A stretch of DNA of 4,288 nt, taken from assembly GCF_003334385.1 (NCBI RefSeq), contig NZ_QOWN01000087.1; one strand, written 5' to 3'. Each line of letters opens with the position of its first letter. Position 1 is the stretch's first letter. Of this stretch, positions 3,039 to 3,656 are shown piece after piece. The DNA comes from Escherichia coli. GTDB taxonomy: Bacteria; Pseudomonadota; Gammaproteobacteria; Enterobacterales; Enterobacteriaceae. A program made the translations under genes and the position numbers. The notes under the pieces are model-generated. The model searched no databases, was not told the DNA's origin, and saw nothing but the letters and a program-made list of their open reading frames with translations.

Positions 3039-3656
3039 ATGAATGAAAATGTAAGACACATATTGCTGGATGCAATTGAAAATAAGAAATCTTTAACGGT
3101 AATTTACTTAGGAGGTAGTCAGCCAGGAACATTGAGAGATATATCTCCGATAAGCATATCAGAAGATAAACTTAGGGCAAGATGCCATAGTACTGATGCT
3201 GTAAAGTTTTTTAATATTGGGAAAATACAACTACCTAGTGACTCGTCCATGATAACTGTGCCATATGGAAGTTTAGAGCTTAAAGTTTATGAGACGATGC
3301 AGAGTGTGTATGAGGACTTTCATAGCCTGTATCCGGAAGGTCGATGGGGAGTTGAATTTAATGATCATGAATTTGCTCTATTTGATTTTTTCAAAAATGG
3401 AAAAAGAAAAAAAACAGCATTTATGGCAATTCAGTTTATGGAAAGACATGAGGATGAAACAAGAACGGAGATAACAATTGATGTCAGTCTATCAGGTGTT
3501 GTGATTTCGGAGGGAGCCAGAACACCTAAAAGACGTCCGTGGGTTGTGACTGGTCCCGGGCGTGGAGAGCTAAGAACTTATTCAACGTTAGACAAAGCTG
3601 CTACAGAGTTTTTTAAGCGACTTTCATTGATGGTATCTATGGCGATTGAAACATAA
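3039..3656 (+). CDS. Hypothetical protein, 205 aa; AT-rich cargo (moron) gene downstream of Q; function unknown, possible N-terminal WYL/SH3-like beta-barrel
   Basis: ATG 3039 is preceded by a strong SD AGGAGG (3027-3032) with a 6-nt spacer; stop TAA 3654-3656. Hand-counted GC on sampled 60-nt lines is about 23-48%, against about 50-55% in the nin genes. An intrinsic terminator follows at 3746-3767. The N-terminal pattern LTVIYLGG..GTLRDISPISI..KLRARCH..VKFFNIGKIQL resembles WYL-domain beta-strand spacing (low-confidence inference). No catalytic motif recognised. Confidence 0.7.
   Translation: MNENVRHILLDAIENKKSLTVIYLGGSQPGTLRDISPISISEDKLRARCHSTDAVKFFNIGKIQLPSDSSMITVPYGSLELKVYETMQSVYEDFHSLYPEGRWGVEFNDHEFALFDFFKNGKRKKTAFMAIQFMERHEDETRTEITIDVSLSGVVISEGARTPKRRPWVVTGPGRGELRTYSTLDKAATEFFKRLSLMVSMAIET

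Follow-up and report, generated by a model that had tools for sequence, protein, structure and literature searches.

What is the role of a low-GC gene situated between the antiterminator gene Q and the late promoter pR' of an Escherichia coli prophage? The stretch analysed here (the window; 4,288 nucleotides of contig NZ_QOWN01000087.1, assembly GCF_003334385.1) is the regulatory region in the right arm of a lambdoid prophage of Stx-phage type, and the gene in question, hereafter the WYL gene, is its 205-codon open reading frame (ORF) downstream of Q (Table 1). An original prediction, made from the DNA letters, had taken it for an accessory cargo gene, perhaps a defence gene or a toxin, in a moron slot. 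The evidence below describes a protein best regarded as a new architectural variant of WYL sensor proteins, inherited together with one lineage of Q, and a reasonable candidate for a phage-host conflict gene.

The ORF is preceded by a near-ideal Shine-Dalgarno sequence, AGGAGG at 3027-3032, located 6 nt before the ATG, and encodes 205 amino acids at 3039-3656, as had been proposed. Its GC content of 37.7% (GC3 28%) lies below the 48-55% of the RusA, KilA-N/Rha-like and DUF968 genes upstream, so that the lower GC relative to the nin genes was also correctly noted; the AT-rich block is nevertheless wider than the ORF, extending from ~2726, inside Q, to ~3710. At locus L004 the same place, after a Q of 85% identity, is taken by a 73%-identical variant of the ORF (P0002), and comparison of the two ORFs gives a synonymous divergence (dS) of 0.82, a nonsynonymous divergence (dN) of 0.17 and a dN/dS of 0.21. 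Resolved by part, dN/dS is 0.13 and 0.21 in the two domains of the protein and 1.1 in the linker that joins them; both domains are under constraint, and the linker is neutral.

These values bear on the suspicion that the AT-rich DNA here is mere spacer, with a fortuitous or decaying frame that encodes no functional protein. Its low GC, the label 'hypothetical' in some records and a few disrupted copies would fit such a frame, the latter amounting to 3 of 49 loci in IMG/VR (an 857-nt insertion between Q and the ORF in L025, an interrupted ORF in L066 and a truncated one in L065). This explanation is extremely improbable, being already refuted by a dN/dS of 0.21 at a dS of 0.82, by hundreds of full-length relatives across phyla and by a confident structure model for the C-terminal domain; the Shine-Dalgarno sequence and the hairpin that contains it are both conserved as well. 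The reading of the ORF as a real, selectively maintained gene for a two-domain protein is well supported.

The first 65 residues present the Sm/SH3-like five-stranded beta-barrel fold of the WYL domain. Taken item by item, the sequence evidence for this identity is weak: Pfam WYL (PF13280) matches the protein with an independent E-value of 0.056, below significance, two PADLOC WYL models match at 1.5e-4 and 7.7e-4, a 6-sequence profile retrieves WYL chains of the PDB, including DriD, at 1.5e-3, and among 115 relatives the Pfam model finds 10 at E <= 1e-3 and 54 at E <= 0.1 (best 1.7e-7). The hidden Markov model (HMM) alignment of the PDB profile match sets 'IYLGGSQPGTLRDISP' opposite 'RYEGGSTPGRTREVTP' of DriD. 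In the crystal structure of DriD in complex with single-stranded DNA (ssDNA), Tyr168, Ser172 and Arg178 form hydrogen bonds with the DNA backbone (PMC9186387), and their equivalents Y23, S27 and R33 are conserved in 100%, 90% and 100% of the 115 relatives, respectively; K56 (99%), F58 (93%) and the K44/R46/R48 set are conserved too. The W-Y-L triad itself is absent, the equivalent strand reading K-L-R-A-R-C (family consensus KVRARC), but the triad is degenerate also in accepted members of the family, being NYL in DriD and WHV in CapW (PMC9186387, PMC11662680), and its absence therefore does not exclude WYL membership. The K-x-R-x-R strand carries alternating basic residues on one face and is equivalent to the WYL strand of CapW with its RWHVR motif (PMC11662680). 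Barrel fold, DriD alignment and conserved contact residues together bear out the earlier suggestion of a WYL/SH3-like N-terminus, and the assignment of this domain as a WYL beta-barrel is well supported. Since the residues with which DriD and CapW contact the backbone are kept, the barrel most likely binds single-stranded nucleic acid, a prediction made from conservation.

Beyond the poorly conserved linker, residues 86-205 were modelled from a 58-sequence alignment with a predicted local distance difference test score (pLDDT) of 89.5. The positions conserved in this C-terminal domain (hereafter C-domain) are aromatic or basic in character (W103, K119, N120, G121, K125, R166, P167, W168, A187 and F191 among the 115 relatives), and conserved acidic, His, Cys or Ser residues were not found in the same set, which is why the domain is read as non-enzymatic. 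The model gives good support to an alpha+beta sandwich that is non-catalytic and whose surface is conserved in basic and aromatic residues; this domain would most likely serve as the output, with a partner protein or nucleic acid as its ligand. No match for the C-terminal 120-140 residues was obtained in Pfam, NCBIfam, PADLOC or the PDB sequence families, in agreement with the earlier statement that the last ~140 residues match no family, and the NCBIfam scan returned zero matches for the whole ORF. A Foldseek search of AFDB50 recovered the C-domain in proteins annotated as BRCT or SWIM; in the one BRCT fusion that was read, from Enterobacter soli pENTAS02, a BRCT domain accompanies a complete WYL/C-domain module (E 1e-32). 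When the C-domain profile was used in a word-index search, the BRCT/SWIM fusions found by Foldseek were not recovered. With its N-terminal helix, antiparallel sheet and C-terminal helix, the C-domain shares the topology of CyaY/frataxin-like sandwiches such as PsiB and the TriTu immunity protein, which are likewise small and non-enzymatic. Its classification as a homologue of PsiB, CyaY-like or immunity proteins was considered and set aside, as clear structural or sequence homology to them was not found.

The resulting architecture departs from that of known WYL proteins. No helix-turn-helix (HTH) family was detected in Pfam, NCBIfam or PADLOC, the barrel being preceded only by a 12-residue helix, and no WCX domain was found at the C-terminus; the protein is therefore not a regulator of the CapW, BrxR, DriD or PafBC type and cannot serve as a promoter-binding factor the way DriD or CapW does. 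Whereas these wHTH-WYL-WCX regulators measure ~300-330 aa, it has ~200 aa, lacks both the winged HTH and the WCX dimerisation domain, carries a different C-terminal domain after the barrel, and shows (K)LRARC in place of the W-Y-L triad. It differs also from WYL1, the Cas13d accessory, which has an N-terminal RHH domain and acts on Cas13d, in having neither an RHH domain nor a CRISPR context, and from the helicase-attached WYL domain of Pif1 in having no helicase.

The two-domain protein is far from isolated. A profile search of 1.84 billion cluster representatives yielded 987 relatives at E <= 1e-3 and 612 at E <= 1e-10, the clusters being counted at 50% identity and the figure of 612 representing a lower bound. 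Nearly all the relatives are 187-210 aa long and span both domains. The protein belongs to phrog_8498 over its full length (E 3e-111), and its two domains correspond to the N-terminal half of phrog_31886 (E 9e-16), both labelled 'unknown function'; unlike the E. coli protein, members of PHROG 31886 carry an additional domain of ~150 aa, here called domain 3. The gene was found in 43 of 5,426 complete E. coli genomes. A tblastn search of 50,697 phage records retrieved two distant homologues alone and no E. coli phage isolate, and the single match among plasmids was the genome of a P2-like phage. Literature searches found nothing on the combination of WYL and C-domain. The family is thus widespread on phages, integrons and plasmids and already catalogued yet uncharacterised, so that the idea of a previously undescribed one-off gene does not hold: the family numbers at least 612 clusters, includes PHROG 8498, and some of its RefSeq entries read 'WYL domain-containing protein'.

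Relatives occur in varied settings. One is a single-gene cassette between attC sites of a Vibrio-type chromosomal integron, with ParE/Phd, AbiTii and DUF4365 among its fellow cassettes. This sedentary integron (L010:1-10268; GCA_040102365.1) has 13-14 VCR-like attC repeats, the family member lying at 4693-5268, and its cassettes also encode DUF2441 and several GNAT acetyltransferases. In P2-like phages a family member is located between integrase and repressor; others lie immediately downstream of a CI-like HTH_3 gene, adjoin an S24 peptidase gene, or belong to chromosomal islets of small unannotated genes, to an integrase/AlpA island, to a small RelB/ParE plasmid, or to a stretch of unannotated genes in a 209-kb cyanophage. 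Among these, L074 (NC_015969.1, Enterobacter soli pENTAS02) was deposited as a plasmid and resembles a P2-like phage (gpA-type replication endonuclease, Dam, Fil, integrase); its lysogeny operon comprises an HTH repressor, a tail-anchored membrane protein, the BRCT+WYL+C-domain protein and the integrase, and a motif AGRD(Y/F)xEN is shared by the repressor, at its C-terminus, and the membrane protein, at its N-terminus.

The partners of the module vary as well. Domain 3 is fused at the C-terminus in P0008, P0027, P0152 and phage PY3 gp2 (PY3_2), and at three independent loci, on a chromosome, the integrase/AlpA island and the RelB/ParE plasmid, it is encoded by a separate gene 2-3 nt 3' of the family member (E <= 1e-56). 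The WYL/C-domain module and domain 3 stand in a Rosetta-stone relation. Domain 3 had no match in Pfam, NCBIfam, PADLOC or the PDB, and the 25 kb of the E. coli prophage contain no homologue of it. Further fusions add an N-terminal transmembrane (TM) segment with a coiled coil, C-terminal zinc ribbons with a TM segment, or the N-terminal BRCT domain, and some members are followed by genes for small membrane proteins. None of the partner proteins (domain 3, a 68-aa zinc-ribbon membrane protein and a 124-aa ORF) matched PADLOC. The likeness of the 68-aa zinc-ribbon membrane ORF to the C-terminus of P0104 is architectural only (BLAST E 0.1) and was not taken as evidence.

The position of the gene in the E. 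coli prophage depends on where the late promoter lies. The mapping of pR' derives from homology to prophage Sp5 of E. coli O157 Sakai, not from experiment in the present strain. In Sp5, differential RNA sequencing (dRNA-seq) and Term-seq placed the start of pR' 258 nt from the 3' end of tR' (PMC7547250). Counting 258 nt upstream from the U-tract of the sole strong downstream terminator leads to L017:1041-1047, within a box located at L017:1043 and 2-8 nt beyond a TATCAT -10 hexamer. The offset of the RefSeq version of Sp5 was set from this 258-nt spacing, and the older stx2A coordinate agrees with it. The box, AAGAGTGG, has a single occurrence in the window, at 3716. Because the published Sakai start places initiation inside this box, TAATCT is read as the -10 element; for the same reason an alternative, with TGtTATAAC (3687-3695) as an extended -10 and TAATCT as a sigma-dependent pause element, was dropped. 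Upstream of it, the conserved island TTGTGTTATAACAAAAA probably includes the Q-binding element.

The surroundings of the box agree with this placement. Homology to ~3,000 E. coli genomes starts at ~3711 and takes in the box GTTAAGAGTGGT and the hairpin that follows; the shared block (3711-4288: late leader, 65-aa ORF and the hairpin at 4074-4091) is present at ~85-97% identity in ~3,000 of the 5,426 genomes, whatever their Q allele. In Sakai Sp5, whose Q933 is 60% identical to the Q of the window, the same box and hairpin come right after the Q933 stop codon; the leader box and hairpin of the window are homologous to those of the Sp5 pR'-tR' leader (StxS). In strain Res13 (L016), which has an unrelated Q of 273 aa, a lambda-type pR' (TGgTAAATT ... 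AACGAT) follows that gene within 83 bp and lies directly 5' of the same leader hairpin. Changes in the stem of the hairpin at 3743-3768 keep its pairing in L004, L013, L015 and L017. Lying at about +25 to +50 of the pR' transcript and within the widely shared block, this hairpin belongs to the late leader. On this homology pR' would lie at 3684-3720, and the WYL ORF, which ends at 3656, between Q and pR'.

This position alters how the gene is to be classified. The terminator attributed to it does exist as a hairpin with T-run, but sits 3' of the inferred pR' start, in the late leader of ~3,000 genomes, and is not the gene's own. Nor is the gene in the stx-type slot of the late operon, as the original prediction supposed, being upstream of pR' and not downstream; stx-type morons lie downstream of pR' and tR' and depend on Q, whereas the WYL gene precedes pR' and is inherited with Q. 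A free-standing moron is equally hard to maintain for a gene between Q and pR', with no sigma-70 consensus promoter upstream and the late leader's terminator downstream, even if the atypical composition and patchy presence of a moron are both found (37.7% versus 48-55% GC; 43 of 5,426 genomes).

In sibling prophages, the interval from Q to pR' proved variable in content, as comparison of window 2973-3683, L015:425-1500, L013/L014 and L017:1025-1033 indicates. The slot is empty in Sakai Sp5 (L017:1025-1033), holds a CPBP-family (Abi-like) protease in O157 TW14359, and holds a Dcm methyltransferase, a DUF262 protein and a HEPN-like nuclease in MEC2025-PR. The Q-to-pR' interval of the Q933/Q21 family is a variable cargo slot, distinct from the stx slot after pR', and to this extent the earlier expectation of a cargo position was right.

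Relative to its own Q, the WYL gene is not occasional cargo. The full-length Q allele of the window is present in 22 of 5,426 complete E. coli genomes, and the records covering >=80% of 2580-4288 (Q, ORF and downstream block) are exactly 22; as such coverage is impossible without both genes, 22 of 22 genomes with the allele carry the WYL gene. Among the enterobacterial loci of IMG/VR the ORF stands right behind its cognate Q in 49 of 49. Likeness to quuD-type and other Q alleles stops at ~2725, where GC falls, to 36.8% over 2726-2972, so that the 3' two-thirds of Q lie within the low-GC module of the WYL gene. Against the L004 variant dS is 0.81 for Q and 0.82 for the WYL ORF. The linkage, the equal dS and the shared GC break identify one old, co-inherited low-GC module of ~1 kb.

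The RNA hairpin at 2999-3037 has an equivalent in the L004 variant (-23 kcal/mol, z-score -5.06), and both its arms are conserved in alignment A4; by its pairing, it sequesters the Shine-Dalgarno sequence and probably gates translation. It is followed by UUAUUUAU, and could gate translation, stabilise a 5' end or be a weak terminator between Q and the ORF. A sigma-70 consensus scan of the + strand over 2500-4288 found no promoter, only weak -10-like hexamers (TATATT at 2989-2994), and Rfam at permissive thresholds gave nothing in the Q-ORF spacer or the late leader, its only match being a truncated STnc100 at the end of the window. As the gene lies on the same strand as Q, is the last before pR' and has no consensus promoter of its own, the simplest reading would be that Q and the gene share the transcript of the early-right operon, barring a cryptic promoter.

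Some further observations concern the late leader and the neighbouring region. The first leader hairpin (3743-3768; L017:1070-1095) is conserved across Q alleles, ~25-50 nt past the pR' start. The late leader of Sp5, StxS-L, extends 258 nt to a second terminator; in the window this second terminator is degenerate, with only GCTGGCTTTTT remaining at 3831-3841. An assignment of the leader as an AgvB/AsxR-type anti-sRNA was rejected, since genes of that type are found elsewhere in the late region, 3' of the moron coding sequences (PMC4104026). The order Q, leader, 65-aa ORF, methyltransferase, tRNAs and nanS-p is that of Stx-phage late regions; in UPEC957C, 100% identical here, as is UPEC 26-1, the region goes on with a DNA methyltransferase, tRNA-Ile/Arg/Arg, nanS-p, holin and lysozyme. 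The non-coding gap between RusA and the KilA-N/Rha-like gene (588-749) is AT-rich (~40% GC), and 4242-4288 (+) matches the 5' part of Rfam STnc100 (RF02076; 30 bits, E 7e-4), under the gathering score and cut by the end of the window.

Table 1. Features of the window, with copies of domain 3 at other loci.
Feature	Coordinates	Strand	Details
RusA	192-587		nin-type gene
KilA-N/Rha-like regulator	750-1565		
DUF968/HNH protein	1567-2562		nin-type gene
Antiterminator Q gene	2580-2972	+	130 aa, Q21/Q933 family; phrog_79 E 3e-47; PDB 6jnx/6p18 (Q21) E 1.4e-8
Co-inherited low-GC module	2726-3710	+	3' part of Q, hairpin, WYL gene, allele-specific region upstream of pR'
RNA hairpin	2999-3037	+	12-bp stem, 3' arm holds AGGAGG (3027-3032); -18.9 kcal/mol, z -4.83, 0/200 shuffles as stable
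WYL gene	3039-3656	+	205-aa HTH-less WYL protein, ATG start; PHROG 8498; RefSeq WP_024236046.1 'WYL domain-containing protein'
N-terminal helix and WYL (Sm/SH3-like) beta-barrel	3039-3233	+	residues 1-65; predicted single-stranded nucleic acid pocket Y23, S27, R33, K56, F58, K44/R46/R48 (one strand face)
Poorly conserved linker	3234-3293	+	residues 66-85; pLDDT <50 for residues 69-79; dN/dS 1.1; length variable in family alignment
C-domain	3294-3653	+	residues 86-205; one helix, then seven antiparallel strands, then a long helix; FKNGKxxK hairpin, RPW motif (both conserved)
Inferred pR'	3684-3720	+	-35 TTGTGT 3684-3689, 17-bp spacer, -10 TAATCT 3707-3712, start ~3718-3720
Conserved 17-nt island TTGTGTTATAACAAAAA	3684-3700	+	identical in L004 variant, flanks differ
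Intrinsic-terminator-like hairpin and U-run (tR'-type), late leader	3743-3768	+	-15.2 kcal/mol; stem-loop 3743-3764, then T-run to 3767
65-aa ORF, widely conserved	3890-4087		phrog_331; in some records 'TrmB family transcriptional regulator'
Terminator-like hairpin	4074-4091		
Domain 3 copies	L068:6582-7049; L071:4001-4465; L072:3115-3567; L002:2606-3115		motifs WTQGPIL.FK.GD and MGWD..K.EMYLGSV

As to function, the reading ranked first from context, tentatively and at somewhat less than an even chance, is that of a conflict module for defence or exclusion that is autonomous and senses nucleic acid. It takes this place because the family travels as autonomous mobile cargo, swaps its fused or adjacent partners, and shares its slot in sibling prophages with defence-type cargo. 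Under this reading, ssDNA arising from phage replication or DNA damage would bind the WYL barrel, the bound ssDNA would switch the C-domain, and the switched C-domain would engage an effector or target; in other members the effector may be supplied in cis or by the next gene, as domain 3 or a small membrane protein. Extended to the whole family, WYL and C-domain would be the sensor core of a widespread, so far undescribed nucleic-acid-triggered defence or abortive-infection family, a proposal that is possible though doubtful, as is its variant in which ssDNA sensing is coupled to the Q/pR' switch. Its ~200-aa forms, such as the E. coli prophage gene and the integron cassettes, would act alone and the others with domain 3, membrane proteins or BRCT, the C-domain being the new output module. 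The toxin role entertained by the original prediction has no support. Several points weigh against a defence or exclusion module. Only generic WYL models of PADLOC-DB v2 match the protein, with no defence-system-specific one; location in the early-right operon, with no sigma-70 consensus promoter and a sequestered Shine-Dalgarno sequence, predicts lytic rather than lysogen expression, which is awkward for a gene protecting the lysogen; a partner or effector gene is missing from the E. coli version, which is followed by pR' and has no domain 3 homologue in 25 kb of the prophage; the 209-kb cyanophage has its homologue in a stretch of unannotated genes; and a role in the phage's own late switch could instead underlie the strict linkage to one Q lineage.

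Three other roles are kept alive by the place in the early operon, the absence of a promoter and of a partner, and the inhibitor-like fold neighbours of the C-domain. A protein made early in the lytic cycle could serve in counter-defence or signal masking, its barrel sequestering the ssDNA read by RecA/SOS or by CapW and BrxR, WYL regulators that turn on immune operons, or its C-domain inhibiting a host factor as PsiB, anti-CRISPRs or T7 Gp1.2 do. The end of the early-right operon, the direction shared with Q and the missing consensus promoter would suit this role, as would the conserved ssDNA-contact residues, the homologue in a large cyanophage and the fact that host WYL regulators sense ssDNA to control immunity (PMC11662680). 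Integron cassettes, chromosomal islands and P2-like lysogeny operons are, however, unexpected places for anti-defence genes, and fusions to TM segments and extra domains resemble effector coupling rather than a sponge, so that counter-defence appears unlikely. Somewhat less probable is an ssDNA-responsive regulator of the phage's own switch (an antirepressor, or a modulator of Q or pR'), in which the WYL domain would detect DNA damage or replication intermediates and the C-domain would bind repressor, Q or RNA polymerase. The gene's strict inheritance with one Q lineage, at equal synonymous divergence, points in this direction, as do the location immediately 5' of pR', the relatives adjoining CI-like, LexA-like or S24 repressor genes, and the precedent of the characterised bacterial WYL proteins, all of them ssDNA-controlled regulators (PMC11662680, PMC9186387). 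Against this, the protein lacks an HTH and any other recognised DNA-binding domain; relatives in integron cassettes, plasmids and chromosomal loci have no phage regulatory genes nearby, and Q933-family prophages such as Sakai Sp5 work without a WYL gene. Least probable of the three, and decidedly unlikely, is a nin-type recombination or replication accessory with no part in conflict, binding ssDNA intermediates beside RusA and DUF968/HNH. The expected co-transcription with the genes at 192-587 and 1567-2562 and the predicted ssDNA binding agree with such an accessory, but composition and linkage assign the gene to the Q module rather than to the nin block, its integron cassettes, membrane fusions and lysogeny-operon cargo are unlike core DNA metabolism, and no more than 43 of 5,426 E. 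coli genomes carry it.

The WYL gene is a worthwhile experimental candidate, not a demonstrated novelty. To our knowledge, every bacterial WYL protein characterised so far either is a transcription factor under ssDNA control or serves as an accessory of a CRISPR or helicase system. The present family would represent a different use of the same sensor, minimal, HTH-less and coupled to a new output domain, which has spread as single-gene cargo of phages, integrons, plasmids and islands and in some lineages has been wired to an extra domain or to membrane proteins. The difference between the Q-to-pR' slot and the stx slot after pR' matters for predicting when cargo is expressed. If a defence or counter-defence role is true, the gene would contribute a further system, one that senses ssDNA and has a new effector domain, and this system would be present in the prophages of uropathogenic and Shiga-toxin-type E. 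coli.

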